From: Staphylococcus sp. CAG:324
Lineage (GTDB): Bacteria > Bacillota_I > Bacilli_A > ML615J-28 > CAG-313
Length of the DNA stretch: 64,000 bases
Assembly (NCBI GenBank): GCA_000433035.1
Contig: FR890808.1
Span: 525-64,524 of the forward strand
Direction: 5' to 3'
The translations under genes were made by a program, and so were the position numbers. Below the pieces are notes generated by a model that saw only the letters and a program-made list of their open reading frames with translations, had not been told where the DNA came from and did no database searches. This document shows, piece by piece, positions 10,874 through 29,658 of the stretch. Position 1 is the stretch's first letter. Each line of letters opens with the position of its first letter.

Positions 10874-11185
10874 ATGGACGAAATATCACCAATTAAATTT
10901 TTTAAATATTATCAAAAAAACATCAATTTCAAAATTATTGATATTAGAGATACAAGAGATTTTGAACTTTATCATATTGTTGATTCTATTAATATACCAT
11001 ATAGTATTTTAATTGAAAAACATCATTTATTTTTAAATTGTAATCATACTTATTTTATTATTTGTAAAAATGGAAATACTAGTTATCATGCTTGTAAGTT
11101 CTTATCCAGACTTGGTTATCATGTTATCAATGTAATTGGCGGAATTGATCATTTTATGGGAGCTGTTGTCACCAAATATGCTTAA
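10874..11185 (+). CDS. Rhodanese-like domain protein
   Basis: IIDIRDTRDFELYHI..SINIP and active-site loop CKNGNTS. RBS AAAGGGGG. Confidence 0.85.
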   Translation: MDEISPIKFFKYYQKNINFKIIDIRDTRDFELYHIVDSINIPYSILIEKHHLFLNCNHTYFIICKNGNTSYHACKFLSRLGYHVINVIGGIDHFMGAVVTKYA

Positions 11186-14100
11186 CACGTAACTTTTTTA
11201 AATTCTTGTTTATAAATGGAATATAAATAAGTATCAATCTTTTTGTTTGAAACCCTCATCATATAATTTTTATAAACAGAAAGTTGTTTGGTATAGGCAA
11301 TATCATCTAAACTGCTAAGTTTATAATCAATAATGTAAATGCAATCTTTCGTTTCAATGATTAAATCTATGATTCCCTCTATTCTGTTTGCTCCTTCCTC
11401 ATAAGAAAACGCATACTCGTGATAGTGCTGAAGGATTTGTTTTTCTTTGATGAAAGAACTTTCTAAAAAAGCAATAATAAGATGTTTTACCTTTTCACTG
11501 ATATGAAGATGCTGAACATTCACACTTGACATATTTGATAATTCTAAAGCTTTATGAAAATAATTACCAAGTTGTATTATTTCTAATTCTTCTTTATCTC
11601 TAAAGAAAATAGATTCTTTAGAAGCCTGAATTTTATGAAGGCTTCTTTTTTTAAGACTCGTATCAAAAAAAGAAAATTCTTTATAATCTATCCTATCAAT
11701 AGGCTCATCTATTGTATCCTTACTTATAGAATGATATTCTTTTACCATATTGATAAATTGTAAATCTACTTCTTCTTCTAAAGACTGTAATTGAGGAGCA
11801 ATCAAATTGAGTAAATCATAAAAAGAACGAATTTGTAATTTTTTTTCTTCTATTTCATCTTTTGAATAAACGATATCGTTACGAAATTTTGGCAATACTA
11901 AGATTGCTTCTTCTTTTGGTCTTGTCAATGCTACATACAATAATCGAATTCTTTCACTAATTTCTTCTTTTAAATAATCATTTTGTTCTAAAAATTTAAG
12001 TGGATTGGTTAAAAATAATCCATTAAGATAAATGGGCATAATAATTTGATAATTTTTACTATACAAAAAGTTACCTTTCAAATCTTGTAAATTAAATTTT
12101 TTATATAATTCTGGAAAAAAACAAATAGGAAATTCTAATCCTTTTGAAGCATGGATAGACATCATTTTTACTGCTTGATTATCAAGTGATTCTTTTTTAG
12201 TCATTTTGATAGCAAATTTCTCTTCTTCATTCACTAAAAGAGCAAAATAATTGATAACATCTATGAAACTATATTCTAGTAATGATAGACTATCTATAAT
12301 GTTATACATATATAAAAGACACGATTCAGCTTTTTCTACATGATATAAATGTATCATTTTAATATATATATCAAATTGTTGATAAACTAACTGCATACAT
12401 TGCTTAAGCGTGCATACATCAAGTTGCATCGCAATTGTTTCAAATTGATTAAATAATGCTAGATTGTATTCTTTTAATGAAGCTAAAATATGATTTGATG
12501 TTATAATTTTAGTAATATCATCATCATTCATCTCTACTAAATAACTACGCAAAACCGAAGTGAGTGCTCTTTTTAAATGATGACTAGCATAATTTTGATC
12601 ATAAAAAGAATAAATAACTTTCAAAAGATTATATATAGCATATATCTCTCCGCCAGCTGTAAAGTCTTGATCTTTATAAATCTGAAGAGGAATTCCTTGA
12701 TATTCAAAAATTTTTTTATACAAATCATACTTATCTTTAGAACTAGTTAAGATTGCAAAATCTTGGTAAGTTACAAGACGATTGTCTTTGATATTTTTAT
12801 CAAAGATTTTTTTTTGATTGACCATTTGTTTGATTTTTTCAGCAATAAGAAACGCTTCTATTTCTGCTTTGGAATAAGGATTCTTTTCATCTACATCGTA
12901 TGTATATATCTTTGTTTGATAATCAGATGCCTGAAATGTATCATAGGTTTTAAAACCATAGTTTAAATAATGTGCATCATTATAATCTACTCCACCTAAA
13001 TCTAGGCTCATTACATTTTGAAAAACCAAATTAACAAAATCTAAAACTTCTTTTCGTGAACGAAAGTTTTGCGTTAAATCAATTACACCGGTTTCTTTTA
13101 ATTTTTGATATTTATTTTTAAAAATATCGGGATTAGCATTTCTAAATCGATAAATAGATTGTTTGACATCACCTACCATATAAACGTTGTTATCGGCAAT
13201 TAACTCTACAAGTCTTTCTTGAATATCGGAAGTATCTTGATATTCATCAATTAAAATTTCTTTTGTATGCTTCTTTATACTATTTCGAAGTTCTTCATTT
13301 TCTTCTAATAATTGGATGGCCATTTGAGCAATATCATTAAAATCATACGCATGATGTTCATATTTATATTGATTTAAAGCTTGATCTAATTTTAACAAAA
13401 TTTGAACTACCATACTAACACAAGGTTTTGTCGTCAAATACAGCTGCCTTAAATTTTTAGAACTTTCATAAACAAATAACTCTTTCATACTTGCTATTTG
13501 CGTTTTTATTTCTTCATAAATTGTCCGATATGGTTCTTTTTCTTCTTCATACTCTACTTTAGAAGGTAATTTGGCAAATTGATATGTTGTCAAAAAGAAA
13601 TAATCATCATAACTAGTTGCACTTTTTAATCTTTGACCTAATTCTACCAATCCTTCATAATGGGTTTTCAGACTAATAGATGCCGTATAATTATGTAATG
13701 ATTGGATTTTATTTTCAATCTGTGCTGTTTTTTCTTGCAAAAGTTTGTATAATTCATTTAAGATTTTAATAATAAATTTTTCACTAAAATATTCTTCATT
13801 GTTCATTAAGATCTTTTGATAATTAGGAACTAAAACTATTTTATGGTACAGTTCTATTAAATTATGTTTTAAGACTTCATCATCTTTAGTTGTATATTGA
13901 TAAAGTAACGTCAAAAAGGAAGGATTTTCTTCTTGATACAATTGATTAAAAATCTCATTTAATAAATCTAAGGAAATCATTTTAAAAGTAATTTGATCAA
14001 CTACATTGATTTGGCTATTTATATTAAGCAGATAATGATACTTTCTAACCAATTCATTCACAAAGGCATCAAATGTTTGAATATTGGCTTGATCAATATA

Positions 14101-14355
14101 TAACAATGCTTCTTGTGAGAAAGGACTTTTGCTTTCTTTTAGCTTTGTTCTTAATCTTTCTTTCATTTCGCTAGCCGCAAGAGTCGTAAATGTTAAAACA
14201 ATGAGTTCATTGAGTTTCACCCCTGCTTCAATTTTTTGTAACAATCGCTGTGTTAAAACTGCCGTTTTGCCACTTCCCGCTCCTGCATTTACTAAAATAT
14301 CTTTGCCTTCATCATAAATCGCTTTGAATTGTTCAGCACTCCAATTGATCATCAT
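11182..14355 (-). CDS. addA: ATP-dependent helicase/nuclease subunit A
   Basis: UvrD-type helicase with Walker A GAGSGKT, DEYQDT and C-terminal RecB nuclease motif GIIDLI...IIDYK. The start ATG at 14355, with RBS GGAGG, lies inside the addB 3' end. Confidence 0.9.
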   Translation of the reverse strand: MMINWSAEQFKAIYDEGKDILVNAGAGSGKTAVLTQRLLQKIEAGVKLNELIVLTFTTLAASEMKERLRTKLKESKSPFSQEALLYIDQANIQTFDAFVNELVRKYHYLLNINSQINVVDQITFKMISLDLLNEIFNQLYQEENPSFLTLLYQYTTKDDEVLKHNLIELYHKIVLVPNYQKILMNNEEYFSEKFIIKILNELYKLLQEKTAQIENKIQSLHNYTASISLKTHYEGLVELGQRLKSATSYDDYFFLTTYQFAKLPSKVEYEEEKEPYRTIYEEIKTQIASMKELFVYESSKNLRQLYLTTKPCVSMVVQILLKLDQALNQYKYEHHAYDFNDIAQMAIQLLEENEELRNSIKKHTKEILIDEYQDTSDIQERLVELIADNNVYMVGDVKQSIYRFRNANPDIFKNKYQKLKETGVIDLTQNFRSRKEVLDFVNLVFQNVMSLDLGGVDYNDAHYLNYGFKTYDTFQASDYQTKIYTYDVDEKNPYSKAEIEAFLIAEKIKQMVNQKKIFDKNIKDNRLVTYQDFAILTSSKDKYDLYKKIFEYQGIPLQIYKDQDFTAGGEIYAIYNLLKVIYSFYDQNYASHHLKRALTSVLRSYLVEMNDDDITKIITSNHILASLKEYNLALFNQFETIAMQLDVCTLKQCMQLVYQQFDIYIKMIHLYHVEKAESCLLYMYNIIDSLSLLEYSFIDVINYFALLVNEEEKFAIKMTKKESLDNQAVKMMSIHASKGLEFPICFFPELYKKFNLQDLKGNFLYSKNYQIIMPIYLNGLFLTNPLKFLEQNDYLKEEISERIRLLYVALTRPKEEAILVLPKFRNDIVYSKDEIEEKKLQIRSFYDLLNLIAPQLQSLEEEVDLQFINMVKEYHSISKDTIDEPIDRIDYKEFSFFDTSLKKRSLHKIQASKESIFFRDKEELEIIQLGNYFHKALELSNMSSVNVQHLHISEKVKHLIIAFLESSFIKEKQILQHYHEYAFSYEEGANRIEGIIDLIIETKDCIYIIDYKLSSLDDIAYTKQLSVYKNYMMRVSNKKIDTYLYSIYKQEFKKVTC

Positions 14356-16762
14356 CGCTTCCTCCTTCAAAAAGGTATGAAAAATCATCATGTTTTTTAT
14401 AAACTTTTTTCATTGTTTCATTTCTATAACAAAGATCTTTTAACCTACAATATCGACAAACAGACTCATTTTTTTCATCTGTCAGTGGTAAAATGGGAAA
14501 AAGCCCTTTTCTAATTTTCTTATTTGCTTCAAAAATCAACTTTTCGACATATAAAATGATAGCATCAAATTGAGTTTGAGTAAAAGATTTCTTTAAAAAG
14601 TTTTTATAAAAACCTTTATTAGACACAATTTGTTTAGGCAAACTACCACTCCCATTTAAAGCATTGGTATCAATTGCTAAAATAACATCCCTATCTTGTA
14701 AAGTATATCCTACATATTTTAATTGTTCTAACATTACTTTTGATAAAGGTTTATCCTCATATTTTAAAAGGCTGGTGCGAAAAACGCTTTGTAAATAGCT
14801 TCCAGCAATCTTTGCGTTAGGATCATTTGCTTTGATTAAATATAGATATAGTGGCAATTGCAAATCGAGACCTACATCAAGAGCATACCAATTCGGATGA
14901 ACTGGATTTGTTTTATAATCAATGACCAAGTAATACTCTTGATATTTTAGGATTTTATCAATCAACCCAACTACTACCGTGTAATCATCGAGTTGCTTTT
15001 CTAATTTTTGTTCAAGACCTAAGACTTCAAAAGAAGAATGATCCATAAAATCCATTATAATTTCTACAATGAGTTTTAACTCTTCACTAAATTTATTTAA
15101 ATAAAATTTTAATTTATCTTTTATTTCATATGTTTGATTTTTCACAAAATCACAAATATACACACTGATATTTTCTAAAACTTCTTCTTTTGTTCTACGA
15201 TCAATATATCTTTTTGCCACAACTTTTTCTAAAACAAAATGATACATCCTACCAACAAATGTGCTATTATTATCTTCCATCTTTTCTTCAATGTTCAAAA
15301 TATATTTAAGATAGAAACGAAAAGGACAACTAAAATAATCGTTTAATTTTGTATAGGATAGCTCCATAAATAAAGTTGGTAAAGCCAAGTAATCTAAAGT
15401 CGCATTAAAATCACTTTGATAACGTTTTGTTAAATCATCACAAAAATAAGTATAGCCATAAAGATAGTCAAAAGTTTTCTTTTGGTATAATCGATATAAC
15501 GCATAAGCTTTAAAAAATCTCATCTTTGCCATATCTTCATTGACAATATGATAAATATGAATCGATGCATCGCAAATATTAACAATCCTTTTTTTGGCAA
15601 GTTCCTTAATCAAATTGCTAGGCATATAAATTTTAGAAGAACAATATGTGGAATAACTTAAATGGATAGATTCATAACTATGAATACAATCAAGTATTTT
15701 CTTTTCCTCAATTTGCGTTTTATCAAAACTCGTTAATAATTTTAAGTTTTTTCTTATCTTATCGTTTAAATACGTATCATCTTTATAAATATGGGCAATT
15801 TCACCATGACTAAAATTCATAATAAAAATATGTGTATCATCATCATAGATGTGATTCAAAACATTTTCAATTTTGATTGCATTGGTAACTTCTTCTTGAT
15901 AAATTGTATGGATAAAAACATCTTTGATTAAATCTAGAGTAATGGAATTGATTGTTAAATCTAACATAATAAGGGGTTCTAACACTTTACCTATCTTGGA
16001 AAAAATTTTGTTATCTTTTTTATCTATAAGATAATCTTTTAACACTTTATTTAGTCGCATTGCTTCATAATTTTTTAAATCATGAAAAAAATTTTTAACA
16101 ATATCTACGTCAAAAAAAGAACCTTCCCCCTCAACAATATAATCAATTTTATATATCATCAAATATTCTTCTAACTTATTTAAGTAATCTTTATTTACTT
16201 TATGAATAACAATTTTAGCAGGATCCACTTTCTTATTTAACAAAATAGCAATATGATTGACCACCTCTAATATCTCATCATCATAATTTTCAAAATGAAA
16301 AATGGTCAATTCTTTGTCTATACTATTTGTTGTAAAACATCGTTCATAGTGTTTTAAAAATGGCAACATTTGATTAATTAAATCATCATCCCCATAATAA
16401 TTAACAAAATAAACTTTTTTACTTTTATAATAGGACAAATGATTTTCATCTAAGATCAAATGGTTGTTTTGATGATAAAGATATAACTCATGAAGAAAGG
16501 GCTCATTACTATCTTGTTGAATAAAATAACTATTTGCAAGTTTGATTCGCAATACTTCTAAATTTGTATCTTCCTTCATATTATGAAATAACATTTGATA
16601 ATCAATTGTGGTATAAATATCATCTTTTACTTCATCAAAACTCTTAAATGTAATTTTTCGCATTTGATTAGAAAACTTCTGAATTAAGATTGGTTTGATA
16701 TATTTATTTGATACAATAATGATATCTTCTTCTTGTCCAATATGTTCTATTAACTTTTCCAT
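14333..16762 (-). CDS. addB: Helicase-nuclease subunit B (AddB type with Fe-S nuclease domain)
   Basis: FSCPFRFYL ... LIDKI..YLVIDYKT ... CRYCRLKDLC, i.e. a RecB nuclease motif plus a 1+3 Cys cluster typical of AddB. Immediately upstream of addA and overlapping it. Confidence 0.85.
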   Translation of the reverse strand: MEKLIEHIGQEEDIIIVSNKYIKPILIQKFSNQMRKITFKSFDEVKDDIYTTIDYQMLFHNMKEDTNLEVLRIKLANSYFIQQDSNEPFLHELYLYHQNNHLILDENHLSYYKSKKVYFVNYYGDDDLINQMLPFLKHYERCFTTNSIDKELTIFHFENYDDEILEVVNHIAILLNKKVDPAKIVIHKVNKDYLNKLEEYLMIYKIDYIVEGEGSFFDVDIVKNFFHDLKNYEAMRLNKVLKDYLIDKKDNKIFSKIGKVLEPLIMLDLTINSITLDLIKDVFIHTIYQEEVTNAIKIENVLNHIYDDDTHIFIMNFSHGEIAHIYKDDTYLNDKIRKNLKLLTSFDKTQIEEKKILDCIHSYESIHLSYSTYCSSKIYMPSNLIKELAKKRIVNICDASIHIYHIVNEDMAKMRFFKAYALYRLYQKKTFDYLYGYTYFCDDLTKRYQSDFNATLDYLALPTLFMELSYTKLNDYFSCPFRFYLKYILNIEEKMEDNNSTFVGRMYHFVLEKVVAKRYIDRRTKEEVLENISVYICDFVKNQTYEIKDKLKFYLNKFSEELKLIVEIIMDFMDHSSFEVLGLEQKLEKQLDDYTVVVGLIDKILKYQEYYLVIDYKTNPVHPNWYALDVGLDLQLPLYLYLIKANDPNAKIAGSYLQSVFRTSLLKYEDKPLSKVMLEQLKYVGYTLQDRDVILAIDTNALNGSGSLPKQIVSNKGFYKNFLKKSFTQTQFDAIILYVEKLIFEANKKIRKGLFPILPLTDEKNESVCRYCRLKDLCYRNETMKKVYKKHDDFSYLFEGGSDDDQLEC

Positions 16763-16825
16763 ATACATTCCTTTTACTTTGCTTCTTTACATCATTATAA
16801 CACAATTGTTGAGGAAAGTCCAAAT

Positions 16826-16857
16826 ATAAAAAACCTTTTTATTCTCTAAAAAGGTTA
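16826..16857 (-). terminator. Intrinsic terminator of spoIIE
   Basis: AACCTTTTT-agagaat-AAAAAGGTT followed by TTTTTAT on the minus strand. Confidence 0.65.
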
Positions 16858-16869
16858 AAAGATTTGTCT

Positions 16870-19104
16870 TTATTTTTGTTTTTGAATTTTTAAAACAATA
16901 ATTGTCATATCATCTTTGGCTTTCATATCATGAGTCGTTGTGTAATTCAAAATTTCATAGACTAGTTGTTGAGGAAGTAGATTACTAGATGATTGAATAA
17001 AACTTTCTAATTGGTCATTGTCAATTAAATTTTCTAATACGCCATCACTACTCATAATAATTAAATCGCCATCTTCTAAATTATACGTTTTTTGATCAAC
17101 TTCCTCATCAATACCAAGTGGTAAACTTTTATTAATAATTTTTTCAACATTTCCGTTTTGTTTAAAAATATAGGTAGTATTCGCCCCCATTTTGTAAAAA
17201 GTAGCCAATCCACTGTGGCGATTAATATCTAAAAAATCAAGTGTAGCATAACGTTCTAAATAATCTTGAACAGTATAAAAAGTATTTAAGATTTCTAACG
17301 CAGTTGATGATTCAATATTCAAATGAACAATATCTTCTACTAAATGAAGGGTCATATCACTTTCATAAAAAGCACTGTAACCTTTGCCCATACCATCTGA
17401 AATAGCAAATAGAATATGACCATTATCTTGTTCTTTAACTAAATAATTATCCCCACTAATTGTTTGACTATCTGCAGGAATATTACCATAAGCATAGATG
17501 ACATCTATGATTAATTTAGGCATAATATGAATATACAAAGTTGTATTTTCTTCAGATATTAGTTCTACACTAACTTCTTCCTCAACAATGGTTTCAAATA
17601 AAGTGGTTAAAATAGTTTTAATTTTATCAAAACTAGTATTTTTAATACCAATTTTTATCAAAAAATCATGTTCATAACATCTTGCAATTTCATAGTAAGT
17701 AACATAATATTCTAATTCTATTAAATAACTTTTGGCTTTATATAAATTTTGATAATTGAGTTCTGTTTTACTAGTTGTGTCAACAACATAATTTTTAAGT
17801 GCATTAGACACACCGCTAATTTGTGCTAACAATATGTAATTATTTGCATCTTTTTCATCACTATTTGGATCTTTATAATTGATTCGTTCATTTAATAATT
17901 TTGATGTATTTAAAATGGATGGATATTTATAACAGGTTTTGGCAAAATCTTCATAATTATAAATAGCATCTTCATCCATCATTAAGATATCTTTAAAAAT
18001 AGGATAGAGTGAGGATTTATTTTGACTAAAACAGACTTTTTGATTTGTACAATTTTTACAATGTTTATCAACAATTGTTTTAATTCCACTGCTTAATTTT
18101 TCATTAAAACCTTTAGGATTTTGGAAACCAATAACAAAGCGATCTAAGAAGCCCGCAAATTTCAAAATTTCTTCGTTGACACTTTTTTGAGCAGTTTGAT
18201 GAATTTCTTTATATTCATCAATATCTTCAGGTTGCACTTTGATAAATATATATGACAAAACCTCAAATATAATGCTTAGCCCCATAATAGAGATATATAC
18301 TGCTTGATTTTGAGTGGCATTACTGAAAATGATAATTGCCAAAAAAGCATTTAAAATGCCAATAGTGTAAACACTTCTAACCGAATATACGCCAGATACT
18401 ACAATAATAATTAAACTTTCATCAATTTTAAAGAAAACATATTCGAGAAAAACAATAACAAGACTATACAATAAACTATAAATATTTTTAAATTTTCGGC
18501 TCAAATACATTGCAAAATAACAACCCACAATAATGGATAAGTTTACATTGAACACCTCAATATAGGTTGCACCAATCGTTGTTAAGATACATATTAAAAT
18601 TTCTAAATAAATATATGAGTGAAAACTTTTATTATCATTAATAAAAAATCTTTCTTTAATGTTTTTAATATCTTTTAAAAGTTTATATAAATAAACATCT
18701 AAAAATAGGTAAATTAAAATACTTAACAAAGTAAAGATAAGTTTACCAAAAATGTTAATGTTAGATTTAGGATACAAAAAAAAGCTAACTACATTTATAA
18801 CTAAAATAAAAGCCGATATAATTATATTAGGTTTTGTAACTAATATATTATCTTTATTCACACCCATTTTAAATAAAAATAAGAAGATAGTTACAAGCAC
18901 AATTAAAACCAAATAACCAATAATAAATTCTTTTGAAAAAAGTAAAATACTTAACAAAGAAACTGGATATATATAATACATATTTCTTTTATCTTTAAAT
19001 AGATAAAATAACATAACAGGTAAATATAAAGAAAATAGATAACCTCCATGAATAGTCAATATTAAAAAGAAGGCTACAATAATCATATTCATTTTTTTTA
19101 GCAC
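16870..19104 (-). CDS. spoIIE: Stage II sporulation protein E-like PP2C phosphatase with about 10 N-terminal TM segments
   Basis: Polytopic N-terminus. C-terminal PP2C motifs FAISDGMGKG, IIMSSDGV and DDMTIIVLK. GTG start with RBS AAGGGGGGAAG. Confidence 0.85.
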   Translation of the reverse strand: MLKKMNMIIVAFFLILTIHGGYLFSLYLPVMLFYLFKDKRNMYYIYPVSLLSILLFSKEFIIGYLVLIVLVTIFLFLFKMGVNKDNILVTKPNIIISAFILVINVVSFFLYPKSNINIFGKLIFTLLSILIYLFLDVYLYKLLKDIKNIKERFFINDNKSFHSYIYLEILICILTTIGATYIEVFNVNLSIIVGCYFAMYLSRKFKNIYSLLYSLVIVFLEYVFFKIDESLIIIVVSGVYSVRSVYTIGILNAFLAIIIFSNATQNQAVYISIMGLSIIFEVLSYIFIKVQPEDIDEYKEIHQTAQKSVNEEILKFAGFLDRFVIGFQNPKGFNEKLSSGIKTIVDKHCKNCTNQKVCFSQNKSSLYPIFKDILMMDEDAIYNYEDFAKTCYKYPSILNTSKLLNERINYKDPNSDEKDANNYILLAQISGVSNALKNYVVDTTSKTELNYQNLYKAKSYLIELEYYVTYYEIARCYEHDFLIKIGIKNTSFDKIKTILTTLFETIVEEEVSVELISEENTTLYIHIMPKLIIDVIYAYGNIPADSQTISGDNYLVKEQDNGHILFAISDGMGKGYSAFYESDMTLHLVEDIVHLNIESSTALEILNTFYTVQDYLERYATLDFLDINRHSGLATFYKMGANTTYIFKQNGNVEKIINKSLPLGIDEEVDQKTYNLEDGDLIIMSSDGVLENLIDNDQLESFIQSSSNLLPQQLVYEILNYTTTHDMKAKDDMTIIVLKIQKQK

Positions 19105-24251: not shown

Positions 24252-25565
24252 ATGAAACTTGGGATGATTTCACTTGGTTGTGCTAAAAACTTAATTGACT
24301 CTGAACTTTTTCTTGGTGTGGCACAAAAATATAATTTAGAAATTACCAATAATATTAAAGAAGCAAACATTATTGTTGTGAATACTTGTGGCTTTATTGA
24401 AAGTGCCAAAAAGGAAGCTATTGATACTCTTTTAGATGTTACTGAAAATAAAAAAGGTAAAATCATTATTGCTATGGGCTGTTTAGTTGAACGATATCTA
24501 TCTGATTTACGACAAAGTATCCCCGAAGTAGACATCTATTTTCCAATTCGAGATTATGATCATATTGATAAACTTTTCCAAAAAATTCTTCTTACTGGTA
24601 AATCCTATCAAATGGATTATCAAAATAGAGTACTTTCTACCCTTCCCCATAGTGCTTATTTAAGAATTTCGGAAGGATGTAATAATCACTGTAGTTATTG
24701 TGCAATTCCACTAATTAGAGGATCTTTTAGGAGTAGAGATTTTAATAGTCTAATTGAGGAGGCTAAATATTTAGCAAGTCGCGGTGTAAAAGAAATTACA
24801 CTTATTGGTCAAGATACCACTCGATATGGTACCGATCAAAAAGATAATCTTTTTTTGCATGATTTAATTCATCAAATCTCTTTAATTGATGAAATCAAAA
24901 TAATTAGAGTTTTATATCTTTACCCAGATGAAATTACTAGTGAACTCATTGATGAAATTAAAAATAACGATAAAGTTGCCAAATATTTTGATATTCCCAT
25001 TCAACATGCATCCAATCGAATTTTAAATAAAATGAACCGAAGAGGTGGAAAGTTTTTTTTAGAAAATCTTTTTGAAACCATTAGAAAAAGAATAAATGAT
25101 GCAATTATTAGAACGACTCTGATTGTTGGATTTCCTTCAGAAACGGAAGAAGACTTTAATATTTTATTCGATTTTGTCAAAAAGCAACGTTTTAACCGTC
25201 TAGGAGTTTTTACCTATTCTGATGAAGAAGATACCAAAAGTGCGCAAATGCAACCTAAAGTTCCTCAAGATGTGATGGAAAGACGCAAAGACCAAATTAT
25301 GAGTTTTCAAAATAGACTTTCTAAAATTTTAAACCGAACTTTTATTGGTAAGATCTATATTGCAATTGTAGACTTTTATGATAAAGAAAACTCCCGTTAT
25401 TGTGTGAGAAACTACGCTTATGCCCCAGATGATGTGGACGGATATATCTATATTTATTCTGAAAAACTAGACTATATCCATGCGGGTGACATAATAGAAA
25501 TTGAAATAACAAAAGCGGATAGTTATGATCTATATGCTCGATTAAAAAATAAAGTAACCAATTAA
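24252..25565 (+). CDS. rimO: Ribosomal protein S12 methylthiotransferase
   Basis: SLGCAKNLIDSE N-terminal domain, radical-SAM CNNHCSYCAIP, C-terminal TRAM-like domain. Confidence 0.9.
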   Translation: MKLGMISLGCAKNLIDSELFLGVAQKYNLEITNNIKEANIIVVNTCGFIESAKKEAIDTLLDVTENKKGKIIIAMGCLVERYLSDLRQSIPEVDIYFPIRDYDHIDKLFQKILLTGKSYQMDYQNRVLSTLPHSAYLRISEGCNNHCSYCAIPLIRGSFRSRDFNSLIEEAKYLASRGVKEITLIGQDTTRYGTDQKDNLFLHDLIHQISLIDEIKIIRVLYLYPDEITSELIDEIKNNDKVAKYFDIPIQHASNRILNKMNRRGGKFFLENLFETIRKRINDAIIRTTLIVGFPSETEEDFNILFDFVKKQRFNRLGVFTYSDEEDTKSAQMQPKVPQDVMERRKDQIMSFQNRLSKILNRTFIGKIYIAIVDFYDKENSRYCVRNYAYAPDDVDGYIYIYSEKLDYIHAGDIIEIEITKADSYDLYARLKNKVTN

Positions 25566-27481
25566 GTTACTTTATTTTTCATTTGTTCCCTTATTCCTTT
25601 TAAAATTTCAACCATTGCCCATGTATCTTGTCTACAATATATGCGAAGTGCTACATATTTTTCTTGATATTCTTTTGTAGTCAAGAAAGGAAGCATCCCA
25701 TATGTAAGGATTGCTTCAGTACCATTTTTCACATCTAAATTTGTATATGTTAAATTGGTAAAAAGAGGCAATACTTTTTTGATTGAAAAAGAACCATGCA
25801 TTAAATTATTGTAATATGTAAAACTTGGCTTATCCCTACTTGTATTTGGAAATAACTCTTTCGATCCTCTTAATACCTCTAACAAATCAAAAATATGATC
25901 ATTTATTTTATCTAATTGATCTTTTTTATCTTTAAAAATGAAACTTAATTCTTTTAATCTAGTTTTCTCAAAAGACTTATTATAAACAATAACGGTGCCA
26001 CCATTTGTTAAATCAATATGCGCAATCAGACTCTCAATTAACTCTAATCTATGATCTTGATGATCTTTGGCTAAATATTCAAAATGATCTTGAATACAAT
26101 CACAATGACCTAATGCTTTTTCCACATGTAGGGAATATTGAAATAAGGATTGTGTATATGGATGTTCCCCTTTAAAACGAGGAAGAGGACAATTATAACT
26201 TTCGAAATCCAAATAATATACTGGATATTTAATTTTTTTAATTGCTTCTTTCATTCTTGCTTTATCAATATATATCTCATTATTTATATAACAATCATAT
26301 TGAATAAGATTTTCTTTTTTGTTTAAATAGGTTTTAACATCATCTATTTTATAAAATCCTTGATTAATTAATTCAAAAACATCATAATATTTTTTCTTAT
26401 TATCCTTAGTGGGCTTACTAAAAGCATATTGTTTTTTTAAATATTCTAAAATTGAACCATCTTGTAATACTTCTTTCATACATACTTTACAAAATTTACA
26501 CATCGTGGTTTTTTTATATTCACAATGCTTGCCTAAACATTTAGGACCAATTGTTAAGTATTTTTCTCTTTTTAAAATTTGTTGTTTTTCTTCTTCAATT
26601 TGTGTTAAATATAATTTCGATAAATCATTCATGTCGTAAATTTTAAATAAAGCCTCGCCATTTTCATCTAAATCATATAATGGCTTGTTATCACAATCAT
26701 ATTTACCATTAAAAGTATAATTGGCATTGAGAACGACTAAATAATATTCTATCTTTTTATCTAAAAAAGAATTTTTTTGTTTCAAACTATTTTCAATAAT
26801 ATGTCGTTGAACGGAAATATCATATATATATTTTCCCACATCGGAATATCGATCGAGTAGTATTTTTTGCTTTTTATCCAATCGCATCTTTTCTTTTTCA
26901 TCAAAAACATGACTCATATCTTGATATCTAATAATATTGTCTTTATCTTTTACAAAAAAGTAGTAGGGTTTTTTGTTGATCATAACACAAAAATCATCAT
27001 ACTTTTTAGATGTAGTTGCTTTAACCTCAAAAATTTTAATCGTTTTTTCATCTTCAAAATAAGCATCTAGATAACAATAAAAAAGGTTTCCTTCTTCTTT
27101 ATATGAATATTTTTTTTGTTTATATGTATTGACAGAAGCAACTACTTGATGTTGAAACACCTTTTCAATATAACAAGTAGCTAGTCTTTCAACTTCTGTA
27201 AAGGTTTTTGCAAAAGCCTCCATTTGAGCATTGGTAATATTTAATAAATCATCCCCCGTTTTTTCGTCAAACATTTCTTGAAATATTTCTTCAATTTTTT
27301 CGTTTTTAACATCAAATAAATTGTCCTTTAATGTGAATATAGTCTTTTCTATATCTTGTTCTATTTTATTTCCCTCAATTTCTTTTATGTTGTGTAATCC
27401 CCTATTTATATATAAATCATATAGAGAAATAAAATTATGACATCGTGATAAATTTTTGAATATCGTTTTAGAAATATGCAT
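25562..27481 (-). CDS. DUF2779 family protein: predicted PD-(D/E)XK nuclease with Cys cluster fused to a DEDDy-like exonuclease domain
   Basis: Motifs CYLDAYFED...IFEVKATT, CLGKHCEYKKTTMCKFCKVC, YYLDFES...FQYSLH, VYNKSFEKTRL and YCRQDTWAM. The ATG at 27479-27481 overlaps the upstream TGA, with AGGAGA 5 nt upstream. Confidence 0.8.
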   Translation of the reverse strand: MHISKTIFKNLSRCHNFISLYDLYINRGLHNIKEIEGNKIEQDIEKTIFTLKDNLFDVKNEKIEEIFQEMFDEKTGDDLLNITNAQMEAFAKTFTEVERLATCYIEKVFQHQVVASVNTYKQKKYSYKEEGNLFYCYLDAYFEDEKTIKIFEVKATTSKKYDDFCVMINKKPYYFFVKDKDNIIRYQDMSHVFDEKEKMRLDKKQKILLDRYSDVGKYIYDISVQRHIIENSLKQKNSFLDKKIEYYLVVLNANYTFNGKYDCDNKPLYDLDENGEALFKIYDMNDLSKLYLTQIEEEKQQILKREKYLTIGPKCLGKHCEYKKTTMCKFCKVCMKEVLQDGSILEYLKKQYAFSKPTKDNKKKYYDVFELINQGFYKIDDVKTYLNKKENLIQYDCYINNEIYIDKARMKEAIKKIKYPVYYLDFESYNCPLPRFKGEHPYTQSLFQYSLHVEKALGHCDCIQDHFEYLAKDHQDHRLELIESLIAHIDLTNGGTVIVYNKSFEKTRLKELSFIFKDKKDQLDKINDHIFDLLEVLRGSKELFPNTSRDKPSFTYYNNLMHGSFSIKKVLPLFTNLTYTNLDVKNGTEAILTYGMLPFLTTKEYQEKYVALRIYCRQDTWAMVEILKGIREQMKNKVT

Positions 27482-28611
27482 CAATATCTCCTAAATAAAT
27501 TAGAATATCCTGGATAAACTAAAACATTTTTATAAAGACGATTTAAATTATATTCGCCAAGAAAACCTTCTTCGTTATTGATATGCATTGAAAAATCTTT
27601 ATAGGTAATCCAAATTAAGTCATAAGATAATTCTTTTATTTCTTCTTTTGTTAAAAATAATTCAGTAAATAAAATAGTTAATTTAAAGCCATGATAGGTA
27701 AGTACAATTTCTTTACCTAATTTATTTGTAAATACTTCTAAAGATTCCTCTTTTAATCCCATTTGTCTTAGATTTTTGAATATCGTTGTATAGTCACAAG
27801 AAACATTTAAAAATTCAGGTATTTTTTTATATATTTCCCTACTCATATTTCCATCAAAACATTGCCAATCTGCCCTAACCTCTAGATGATCAAAACAAGC
27901 AATATCATCTATCATAGATATATATAAATTACTTTTAGAATGATGACATATCACTTCTTTGATATTGGTTGTAACATACAAAATATTGATATTAGTATCA
28001 ATTTTAAGCATCTCCTTATAATACGTTTTTATCAATTGAGCCGCAATTTCTTCTGCTGGTTTTAAATTTAATGACATTTTTTTAAAAGGAGCTATTATTT
28101 GTGGTTCAACAACTAGTAATTTATCATTTTTATTTTGATCTAATTTATTCGCAATCCTTTTGATAAATTCGTGAGTAAGTTCGGTAAATTCAACCATTTG
28201 AAATAGTTTTAAACTAATAATATCGTTAAACCCTTTTTCTTTATATCTATTAAGACAACTATCATAACATTCAGGACTACATAAAAGAATATTATAATCA
28301 CTTTGCTTTAAATCAATTATATGATTCAATTTTTCTTTTAAATGATCACTTCTTACCTTTAAGAAGTCATGTAAGTAACTATATACTTTTTTAGAATTCG
28401 TTAGTATATGCATTTCATCTAAAACCATAGTCTCTTTTGCATTAACCAATTGTGATTGTTCTTCTATTTCAACATAACACAACTCTTCTTTATCATACTC
28501 ATCTAATTTTTCATCAAGTGATGGTAAAAAAATTTGATACTGTCTAATATATTCAAAAATGCTCATTTCTTCAATAAATTCATATTCTTTATGATTTATA
28601 TAAACGGCCAT
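27481..28611 (-). CDS. [FeFe]-hydrogenase-like protein lacking cluster-binding cysteines (function unknown)
   Basis: RBS AGAGGTGA. The N-terminus follows the Fer2_4 pattern of HydA/NuoG. The centre (KEKGFNDII, EFTELTHEFIKRI, LIKTYYKEMLKIDTNINILYV) follows the H-domain pattern, with TSCCPGW, MPCT and MACHGGC replaced. Confidence 0.7.
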   Translation of the reverse strand: MAVYINHKEYEFIEEMSIFEYIRQYQIFLPSLDEKLDEYDKEELCYVEIEEQSQLVNAKETMVLDEMHILTNSKKVYSYLHDFLKVRSDHLKEKLNHIIDLKQSDYNILLCSPECYDSCLNRYKEKGFNDIISLKLFQMVEFTELTHEFIKRIANKLDQNKNDKLLVVEPQIIAPFKKMSLNLKPAEEIAAQLIKTYYKEMLKIDTNINILYVTTNIKEVICHHSKSNLYISMIDDIACFDHLEVRADWQCFDGNMSREIYKKIPEFLNVSCDYTTIFKNLRQMGLKEESLEVFTNKLGKEIVLTYHGFKLTILFTELFLTKEEIKELSYDLIWITYKDFSMHINNEEGFLGEYNLNRLYKNVLVYPGYSNLFRRY

Positions 28612-28711
28612 TTTATCACCTCTTTATTATTATACCATATCAGTATTTTTTTTTATTTTTTTTACATATCTTTTTCAAACTTGGTTATACTAACTTTAGA
28701 GGTGGAATATT

Positions 28712-28846
28712 ATGGAAATTAAATTGACAAAAACAACTAAAAAAATTACTAGAGAAAAATGTGGTGATTGTTATTACAATGGAGACTGTAGCATCAATTT
28801 AAAAACATGTCCATATTTGAAAAAACCTAAAGTAATGGAAGAATAA
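28712..28846 (+). CDS. Small Cys-rich protein (44 aa), not in the ORF track
   Basis: AGAGGTGGA RBS 6 nt before the ATG. Sequence MEIKLTKTTKKITREKCGDCYYNGDCSINLKTCPYLKKPKVMEE. Its own terminator hairpin lies at 28857-28890. Confidence 0.45.
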   Translation: MEIKLTKTTKKITREKCGDCYYNGDCSINLKTCPYLKKPKVMEE

Positions 28847-28976: not shown

Positions 28977-29052
28977 TGGTGGCTTGGGCCGGGATCGAAC
29001 CGGCGACACATGGATTTTCAGTCCATTGCTCTACCGACTGAGCTACCTAGCC
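28977..29052 (-). tRNA. tRNA-Phe (GAA), CCA encoded
   Basis: Reverse complement GGCTAGGTAGCTCAGTCGGTAGAGCAATGGACTGAAAATCCATGTGTCGCCGGTTCGATCCCGGCCCAAGCCACCA. Cloverleaf folded by hand. One A:A mismatch at acceptor pair 5:68. Confidence 0.92.
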
Positions 29053-29059
29053 AAAATAA

Positions 29060-29135
29060 TGGCGGTTCCAACGGGACTTGAACCCGCGATCTCCAGTGTG
29101 ACAGACTGGCATGTTAACCACTACACCATGGAACC
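29060..29135 (-). tRNA. tRNA-Asp (GTC), CCA encoded
   Basis: Reverse complement GGTTCCATGGTGTAGTGGTTAACATGCCAGTCTGTCACACTGGAGATCGCGGGTTCAAGTCCCGTTGGAACCGCCA. Anticodon loop CUGUCAC. Confidence 0.93.
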
Positions 29136-29137
29136 AT

Positions 29138-29220
29138 TGGTGCGGGCGACAGGAATCGAACCTGCACTCGTGAGAACTAGAGCCTAAATCTAGCGCGTCT
29201 GCCAGTTCCGCCACGCCCGC
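29138..29220 (-). tRNA. tRNA-Leu (TAG), long variable arm, CCA encoded
   Basis: Reverse complement GCGGGCGTGGCGGAACTGGCAGACGCGCTAGATTTAGGCTCTAGTTCTCACGAGTGCAGGTTCGATTCCTGTCGCCCGCACCA. Perfect acceptor stem. Confidence 0.93.
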
Positions 29221-29284: not shown

Positions 29285-29319
29285 TAAAAATGAATAAGGG
29301 AATTTCCCCCTTATTCATT
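29285..29319 (-). terminator. Intrinsic terminator overlapping the stop of the 62-aa ORF
   Basis: AATGAATAAGGG / CCCTTATTCATT stem followed by TTTTTAT on the minus strand. Confidence 0.65.
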
Positions 29320-29499
29320 ACTACAACTTGTTGTGTCACATACACATAATTCACAATGACACTCATCTGCCAATTTTTGGCCTGCTTTAACACAAGCATC
29401 TTTTGTTTTATAATGCTTTTCTAAAACAACACCAAATTCATTTTCAATTTCCCAATTGTTTTTTTCTTTACATGGTCTACAAGTTATTTTTTTGTCCAT
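29311..29499 (-). CDS. Small Cys-rich protein (62 aa), DUF2188-like core
   Basis: ORF trimmed to MDKKITCRPC (ATG at 29499, RBS GAGGTGA). NNWEIENEFGVVLEKHYKTKDACVKAGQKLADE resembles DUF2188. C-terminal CHCELCVCDTTSC. Confidence 0.5.
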   Translation of the reverse strand: MDKKITCRPCKEKNNWEIENEFGVVLEKHYKTKDACVKAGQKLADECHCELCVCDTTSCSNE

Positions 29500-29658
29500 T
29501 ACTATCACCTCATCTTTCACAATCTTATTATGTGTTAATGTTGTTATTTTAATAGTGGTATTTTTCACTAATTTTTTTAATGATTTATAACATATTAATA
29601 TTATTATAAACTTATTTTGAATAATTATACAATTTCCATTTTTTATCTTAAAAATTAT

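Follow-up and report, generated by a model that had tools for sequence, protein, structure and literature searches.

A homologue of [FeFe]-hydrogenase lacking the cluster ligands, encoded upstream of a DUF2779 nuclease gene in gut Mollicutes-like Bacilli

The H-domains of [FeFe]-hydrogenases are regarded as built around their cluster: in HydA, residue C299 (site numbers of hydrogenases are those of CpI throughout) is part of the proton relay, C300 is a [4Fe-4S] ligand, C355 is a further ligand, and C503 bridges to the [2Fe] subcluster. To our knowledge, the known non-catalytic relatives of the H-domain, Nar1/CIAO3 (NARFL, IOP1), all still bind Fe-S clusters. A related situation is found in NuoG/Nqo3 of complex I, which shares the Fer2_4 N-terminus and in which a molybdopterin-oxidoreductase-like domain has been kept structurally after loss of its cofactor. 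Here we describe a hydrogenase-like gene in a 64,000-nucleotide stretch of DNA from Staphylococcus sp. CAG:324 (contig FR890808.1; the whole stretch is called the window below). The gene, referred to as the hyd-like gene, lies at 27481..28611 on the minus strand, with the stop codon TGA at 27481-27483 and the ATG at 28611 in the open reading frame (ORF) list, and encodes 376 amino acids (aa). An earlier note, made from the letters of this DNA, had drawn attention to the same ORF; its coordinates, strand, length and quoted sequence were all reproduced exactly by the ORF listing.

The closest described proteins are the M3-type HydA enzymes (CpI, and the HydA of HydABC; NCBIfam 'Clost' and A6), with which the hyd-like protein has in common a Fer2_4 domain, the H-domain fold and the collinear motifs GF(D/N)..., LIKTYY and, at the C-terminus, ...Y..FL..PG.... 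It differs from HydA in being about 200 residues shorter and without FS4C, FS4A and FS4B, in the absence of the H-cluster cysteines, of an equivalent of K358 and of the L3 loop, in the loss of the 2Fe-2S ligands, and in adjoining a nuclease gene instead of hydABC or hydEFG. Because every cofactor-defining feature fails, the protein is not to be filed as a hydrogenase. The analyses described below identify it, with high confidence, as a cluster-less homologue of HydA that is under selection. It belongs with the hydrogenase-like non-catalytic proteins.

The N-terminal beta-grasp domain (aa 1-85; 28357..28611, minus strand; pLDDT 64-92 in the structural model) is homologous to the Fer2_4/FS2 2Fe-2S domain of HydA, NuoG and HoxU. 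The NCBIfam model FeFe_hydrog_A6 matched aa 2-85 with an E value of 6.6e-8, and Hydr_FeFe_Clost (E 1.4e-6) and HoxU (E 1.9e-6) both matched at the same N-terminus; all three are partial matches to full-length models and lie far below the whole-protein cut-offs. When PDB chains were searched with a profile of 12 family members, residues 4-88 of CpI were matched with E 2.5e-8. NuoG-type matches were weak in the PDB searches with the hyd-like protein and with the family profile. The likeness of this end of the protein to the 2Fe-2S domain of HydA/NuoG-type proteins, which the earlier note had seen, was borne out by these matches. The Pfam search suggested at the same time gave a mixed result, with no match to Fer2_4 or Fe_hyd_lg_C for the window protein itself and weak matches to each in two of the 12 family members only (E 0.0038 and E 0.066, respectively).

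The rest of the protein (aa 101-376; 27484..28311, minus strand) is an H-domain-like alpha/beta region without H-cluster ligands. HMMER alone detected the H-domain in sub-threshold but collinear pieces, and in the reverse direction a hydrogenase profile matched the window ORF in two collinear pieces. An alignment of 18 family members was compared by hhalign with five true hydrogenases found by exhaustive search. Over the full length, the comparison of the family with the hydrogenases reached a probability of 98.5% and E 1.5e-15 across 326 columns; with the N-terminal domains cut from both sides, the H-domain by itself gave a probability of 97.9% and E 3e-12. Reversed and column-shuffled hydrogenase profiles were used as a control for shared AT-rich composition. 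The local score was 70.4 for the real profile, against 15.4 for the reversed and 12.5-18.1 for the column-shuffled profiles, and the control profiles gave E values of 0.16-0.7.

The profile alignment paired GFNDII...TELTHEFIKRI with GFD.VFD...E..ELI.RI, and LIKTYYKEMLKID..INILYV with LIKTYYA.K.NIDPK.IV.VS; the H-domain parallels claimed earlier for the central region were in this way recovered by profile-profile comparison. The best-conserved segment common with HydA in hhalign was KPAEEIAAQLIKTYYK (aa 184-199; 28015..28062, minus strand), which corresponds to SPQQM.GSLIKTYYA. At least five collinear motif correspondences with HydA were found, among them LIKTYY and, at the C-terminus, (I/L)Y..(F/I)L..PG.

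A model was built with AlphaFold2 from the family alignment (mean pLDDT 74.5, pTM 0.74) and compared with the PDB by Foldseek, a check that the earlier note had proposed against CpI and HydA structures. The best 46 matches were all [FeFe]-hydrogenases (E 4e-11 to 1e-8); among them were the HydA of T. maritima, T. kivui and A. woodii, and CpI. The large subunit of the D. desulfuricans enzyme (8bj8_A), which has no Fer2_4 domain, was also matched (E 2.4e-5, TMq 0.41). Homology stands for both halves of the protein, because the profiles, the controlled profile-profile comparison and the fold search with the model agree.

Two other candidate resemblances were rejected. The sole match in a direct Pfam scan of the hyd-like protein, AAA_22, was sub-threshold and was dismissed. 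Designed pentatricopeptide repeat proteins were the top phmmer matches in the PDB; their per-repeat i-Evalue exceeded 300, the score being a sum over identical repeats.

The cluster-ligand columns were read from the 18-member family alignment against the hydrogenases. In the 2Fe-2S domain, the C34 site is a gap in the family, the C46 site is occupied by E, D, Y or I, and the C62 site by Lys in 16 of the 18 members. The C49 site is C45 in the window protein, the one survivor of four ligand positions that the earlier note had counted, though only eight of the 18 members have Cys there. The F-cluster region (FS4C, FS4A and FS4B), whose ferredoxin domains had also been noted as missing, is wholly absent and appears in hhalign as a gap of about 130 residues. 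A linker (aa 86-100; 28312..28356, minus strand), together with a predicted helix at 74-94 (DSSP of the model), replaces this region of M3-type HydA.

None of the three HydA motifs L1, L2 and L3 is present in the hyd-like family. The counterpart of L1, TSCCPxW, is LLVVEPQ (aa 165-171; 28099..28119, minus strand), in which C299 is replaced by E169 and C300 by a gap; across the family the C299 column contains E, L, I, P, Q, D, K or N, and the C300 column is a gap. The counterpart of L2, MPCxxKK, is TTNIKEV (aa 214-220; 27952..27972, minus strand), with N216 for C355 and E219 for K358; the C355 column contains N, D, S, E or K and the K358 column is variable. The L3 motif (E.M.CPGGC..GGGQP) is deleted at IWITYKDFSMH (aa 333-343; 27583..27615, minus strand), and in all family members aligned the C499 and C503 sites both fall inside an 8-residue deletion after ...WITY. 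None of the four H-cluster cysteines remains: two are substituted and two lie within the deletion. The pairings proposed in the earlier note, of LLVVEPQ, TTNIKEV and ITYKDFSMH with the TSCCPGW, MPCTSKK and MACHGGC region, were reproduced by the profile alignment, and inspection of the columns found that the cluster-ligand cysteines are not conserved in the family.

The description of the protein as cysteine-less was incorrect, since it contains eight Cys (45, 111, 115, 119, 222, 239, 251 and 272), and the members of the family contain four to nine. Three of them form the C-x3-C-x3-C stretch LLCSPECYDSC (28255..28281, minus strand). According to the family alignments, C111 is invariant, C115 is variable and present in about half of the members, and 17 of the 18 members have C119; C111 and C119 are at positions that bind no cluster in hydrogenases. 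In the model the region comprises a strand at 106-111 and a helix at 113-123, the stretch lying where the first H-domain strand ends and the next helix begins. By secondary-structure order the stretch would be located roughly where HydA has VAPSIR, the hhalign placement being ambiguous. The placement by hhalign of NILLCSPE opposite the CP motif of the last F-domain ferredoxin was judged to be an artefact; in the model a beta-alpha-beta unit opens with this segment as its first strand. The family alignment shows no group of three or four conserved Cys/His. From the sequences we infer that the protein would be able neither to assemble the canonical clusters nor to make or consume H2.

A search of the literature found no described Cys-less or ligand-free bacterial homologue of hydrogenase. 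Nar1/CIAO3 is eukaryotic and has no Fer2_4 domain. It is likewise an H-domain homologue without hydrogenase activity and with a non-catalytic role, a likeness that is one of functional analogy only. Nar1 keeps conserved Cys and Fe-S clusters that are central to its proposed function, whereas the hyd-like family, as read from its own alignment, is without those ligands. Fe-S enzymes of DNA metabolism are reported to be among the clients of Nar1 (PMC13451876, PMC12621388).

NuoG retains its N-terminal Fe-S clusters within an electron-transfer complex; in contrast, the hyd-like protein has no cluster site and no redox partner nearby. A bacterial HydA homologue that also has a damaged L1 motif, with TSDSPAL for TSCCPxW, is P0046 (GCA_013332095.1, locus L014). 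Unlike the hyd-like protein, P0046 has the F-cluster domains, the L2 Cys, an intact L3, a match to Pfam Fe_hyd_lg_C and a place in a HydABC/Rnf operon, and its loss is partial. This 547-aa HydA paralogue (L014 6001-7644) has TQCLSAK for MPCxxKK and adjoins a second HydA-like gene; it may be a partially inactivated or a sensory hydrogenase.

When the hyd-like gene was compared with its 86%-identical orthologue in L006, dN/dS was 0.12, the N-domain (0.18) having a higher value than the H-like part (0.10); the neighbouring DUF2779 gene gave 0.118 for the same kind of pair. An intact reading frame was kept in lineages down to 29% identity. Most of the listed family members are full length (349-378 aa), and the shorter ones have 51-185 aa. 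The dN/dS of 0.12 shows that selection maintains the protein. Together with the loss of the ligands, it therefore supports the interpretation given in the earlier note, a hydrogenase fold repurposed as a non-redox protein, as the best reading.

The hyd-like ORF is a real, expressed-looking gene that has a -10 box and a ribosome-binding site of its own. Consensus matches identified a putative extended -10 element, TGgTATAAT, at 28629-28637, and a Shine-Dalgarno (SD) sequence, AAGAGGTGA, at 28616-28624 (together 28616..28637, minus strand); no -35 match was found ahead of the gene, the promoter being read by consensus from the sequence. A tRNA-Leu/Asp/Phe cluster lies farther upstream, at 28977-29220. 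The G+C content of the window is about 25-34%, and the DNA reads well in code 11. A 100% identical protein (cluster P0001) was found on at least 1000 public contigs. Its NCBI label is 'hypothetical protein [Bacilli bacterium]', and that of IMG begins 'NADH dehydrogenase/NADH:ubiquinon', which reads as NuoG-type. None of the relatives carries a functional name, and the family is unnamed.

A word-indexed search yielded 12 family clusters at 90% identity. In an exhaustive profile search of 1.84 billion representatives (50%-identity clusters), 13 matches had E values below 1e-30, of which about 11 were full-length proteins; the next-best matches were fragments, Fer2_4 domains (free-standing or hydrogenase-borne) and P0040, a 268-aa protein with the H-like part only. 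This search contained no evolutionary intermediates between the hyd-like family and true hydrogenases. The nearest true hydrogenases, P0029 and P0046, are located in ordinary HydABC operons, away from DUF2779. A diverged subfamily of 268-269 aa consists of P0040 (L012 409-1215) and an ORF in L021 (3192-4001), the latter matching P0040 at E 2e-19; both are without the N-terminal Fer2_4-like domain and without C111 and C119.

The gene is present in two of 185,579 species genomes (one genome per species), 'uncultured Mollicutes bacterium UMGS116' and 'uncultured Bacilli bacterium BRZ_BF bin145'. All carriers are uncultured gut Mollicutes-like Bacilli, a distribution consistent with gut RF39/RFN20-type lineages. 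These lineages are reported to use TGA as a stop codon and to have canonical [FeFe]-hydrogenases with intact motifs (PMC7301438). Among the ORFs examined within the 64-kb window, no canonical hydrogenase and no maturase-like (HydE/HydF/HydG) ORF was found.

The gene located immediately downstream of the hyd-like gene (25562..27481, minus strand) encodes a 640-aa protein of the UU173 family, with a Cas4-like PD-(D/E)XK domain and a DEDD exonuclease domain (Pfam DUF2779, E 4.9e-37; NCBIfam UU173_fam). DUF2779 proteins have been read as fusions of a Cas4-like PD-(D/E)XK nuclease and a DEDD 3'-5' exonuclease, and the member of JCVI-syn3.0 is quasi-essential (PMC13621843, PMC3985635). The likely start codon, an ATG at 27479-27481 (minus strand), overlaps the hyd-like stop codon by 1 nt (TGATG), and the SD sequence of the DUF2779 gene, AGGAGA (27488-27493, minus strand), is contained in the Arg-Arg codon pair near the hyd-like stop codon. 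In L008, in which DUF2779 has been lost, the hyd-like protein (P0019) ends in ...LIKK, compared with ...RR(Y/F) elsewhere. The conservation of the C-terminal 'RR' may be partly at the nucleotide level, because the SD sequence is embedded there and LIKK is found in the locus without DUF2779.

The hyd-like gene followed by an abutting or overlapping DUF2779 gene was found in the window and in loci L001/L007, L003, L010, L011, L016, L017, L019 and L020. The adjacency is kept down to 29-30% identity of the hyd-like protein, and the truncated subfamily is also placed directly upstream of DUF2779, separated from it by 1 nt in L012 and overlapping it by 1 nt in L021. In a set of 80 metagenomic DUF2779 loci, the hyd-like gene was confined to those whose DUF2779 protein was at least about 53% identical to that of the window. 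In one of the distant DUF2779 loci (L043, 1449-4004), the stop codon of an upstream gene for a full-length DNA polymerase I overlaps the DUF2779 start by 4 nt, another hint of DUF2779 nucleases in DNA replication or repair.

The best explanation overall, which we consider probable, is that the hyd-like protein is a degenerate, cofactor-less descendant of a multi-domain HydA whose likeliest partner is the DUF2779 nuclease. A bacterial multi-domain HydA-type [FeFe]-hydrogenase would have degenerated to the hyd-like protein, keeping the Fer2_4 beta-grasp and the two-lobed H-domain fold and losing the F-cluster region and the cluster ligands. The product would be an acidic (pI about 5) pseudoenzyme that acts by protein or ligand binding; the DUF2779 nuclease would be its translationally coupled partner, of which it might be a subunit with an accessory, regulatory or inhibitory task. 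A role tied to the nuclease, as an accessory subunit, is put forward as a tentative suggestion, and the narrower proposal of a metal-stripped H-domain exapted as a dedicated subunit of the Cas4-DEDD (DUF2779) protein, be it a regulator, an inhibitor or a scaffold, seems rather unlikely.

The calculated pI of the hyd-like protein, 4.7-6.0, would be in keeping with a nuclease partner that acts by protein binding or inhibition. Direct binding of nucleic acid is unlikely on charge, because the protein is acidic. The most conserved polar residues are C111, D130, E144, T214, D331, N355 and N357, at or just after predicted strand ends. Rossmann-like lobes bind ligands at strand ends. We hypothesize from the order of secondary structures that these residues would occupy the positions of the cluster cleft of hydrogenases.

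Several observations weigh against this explanation. The window protein has no Pfam match above threshold, neither to Fer2_4 nor to Fe_hyd_lg_C, and the AlphaFold2 model is of medium confidence only, with pLDDT below 50 for the last 37 residues. The family is very narrow, with some signs of erosion: at depth the hyd-like protein has diverged more quickly than DUF2779 (29-52% identity, versus 55-67% for DUF2779 in the same genome pairs), and one subfamily has lost the N-terminal domain, signs that could point to a relic under weak constraint. As for the link to the nuclease, the conserved gene order is much longer than this pair and comprises a small Cys-containing ORF, the hyd-like gene, DUF2779, a rimO/miaB-like radical-SAM gene, PTAC, gidA, gidB and parA; because the whole neighbourhood is syntenic across the clade, the adjacency may reflect common descent and not function. 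In L018 (1-2745) the small ORF is followed directly by DUF2779 and the hyd-like gene is absent. In L008/L009 the hyd-like gene is followed by a 115-aa membrane ORF and DUF2779 is absent (L008 700-2410). This is a clean deletion of DUF2779, because a homologue of the membrane ORF (45% identity, E 5e-30) follows DUF2779 in L011; L018 and L008/L009 both retain a 112-118-aa multi-pass membrane ORF downstream. Since some sister lineages have only one gene of the pair, in either direction, the partnership cannot be obligatory. DUF2779 genes at a greater distance are preceded by unrelated genes, for example polA, a SpoU-type methyltransferase gene and pilin-like ORFs.

The same loci could be explained if the hyd-like protein were a stand-alone non-redox binding or regulatory protein, its former H-cluster cleft binding a small molecule or a protein other than the nuclease. 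The hyd-like gene is intact where DUF2779 was deleted, DUF2779 is kept where the hyd-like gene is absent, the adjacency would be inherited gene order within an entirely conserved region, and the conserved polar residues at predicted strand ends would suit a binding site. We nevertheless regard a stand-alone role as unlikely: the stop/start overlap and the embedded SD sequence point to co-translation with DUF2779, the adjacency survives even in the diverged, N-terminally truncated subfamily, and nothing in the data points to a ligand or to another partner. A redox or sensing role would require binding of a metal or Fe-S cluster in a non-canonical way, by C111 and C119 with C115 or an Asp/His, or at a dimer interface. 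The conservation of C111 and C119 (and of C115 in about half of the members) speaks for such a site, as does the inferred position of the motif near the first H-domain strand, which lines the cluster pocket of HydA, and yeast Nar1 is described as a hydrogenase-like protein with unexpected clusters (PMC12621388). This is improbable, because conservation is limited to two cysteines, which P0040 and the L021 ORF of the truncated subfamily lack, because no three or four His/Cys are conserved together, and because the L3 loop closing the cluster site is deleted.

That the gene is a decaying hydrogenase relic without specific function, heading for loss, would account for the very narrow distribution, the faster divergence relative to DUF2779, the loss of the N-terminal domain in one subfamily and the absence of the gene in L018. 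We consider it very improbable, since dN/dS (0.12) is as low as in the nuclease gene next to it, the frame is intact down to 29% identity with most listed members at full length, and the gene has promoter-like and SD signals of its own. The homology itself could be confined to the N-terminal domain, the C-terminal alpha/beta resemblance being due to chance or to AT-rich composition, as might be supposed from the missing Fe_hyd_lg_C match for the window protein and from HMMER alone giving only sub-threshold second stretches. The H-domain-only hhalign result compared with its controls, the Foldseek match to a hydrogenase without the N-terminal domain and the collinear motif correspondences make a chance resemblance hardly credible. 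A cofactor-less descendant of HydA, with the DUF2779 nuclease as its likeliest partner, remains the preferred explanation.

If a ligand-free H-domain fold is indeed kept under purifying selection, the fold would be stable without its cluster and usable for a non-redox role, and studies of folding and design would have in the hyd-like family a natural 'apo-scaffold'. For annotation, hyd-like genes, with their NuoG-like label in IMG, should not be counted as capacity for H2 metabolism in gut Mollicutes-like lineages. The link to the nuclease, if true, would give a handle on the uncharacterised DUF2779 family and would connect the fold of hydrogenases with DNA metabolism in bacteria, a situation loosely comparable to that of eukaryotic Nar1, which serves Fe-S DNA enzymes.

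The small Cys-containing ORF mentioned above (28712-28846, plus strand) is transcribed divergently from the hyd-like gene and lies about 100 nt upstream of it. It is conserved as an ORF of 39-61 aa with an invariant four-Cys motif, KCGDC(Y/F)YNGxCx6-7C(P)YLK, and was also found in L001 (103-243), L003 (88-213), L006 (272-406), L008 (704-829), L010 (154-285), L011 (135-266), L018 (216-335) and L021 (2954-3139), in each case on the minus strand in locus orientation; in L018 it is located directly upstream of DUF2779. No Pfam or NCBIfam match was obtained for this ORF. It could encode a small zinc- or Fe-S-binding protein. A role in anti-phage defence was considered and rejected, as PADLOC gave no match for the hyd-like protein, the DUF2779 protein or the small Cys-containing ORF.

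Two further regions of the window were noted. An 85-aa ORF at 29311-29568 (minus strand) has a Cys-rich C-terminus (CHCELCVCDTTSC) and a weak match to DUF2188 (E 0.011), and is followed by a strong terminator-like hairpin at 29289-29319. At 11182-19104 (minus strand), genes for an AddA-like protein (UvrD helicase and PD-(D/E)XK domains) and an AddB-like protein precede one whose 744-aa product has a PP2C phosphatase domain of the SpoIIE type, a notable set for a Mollicutes-like gut lineage with a small genome.

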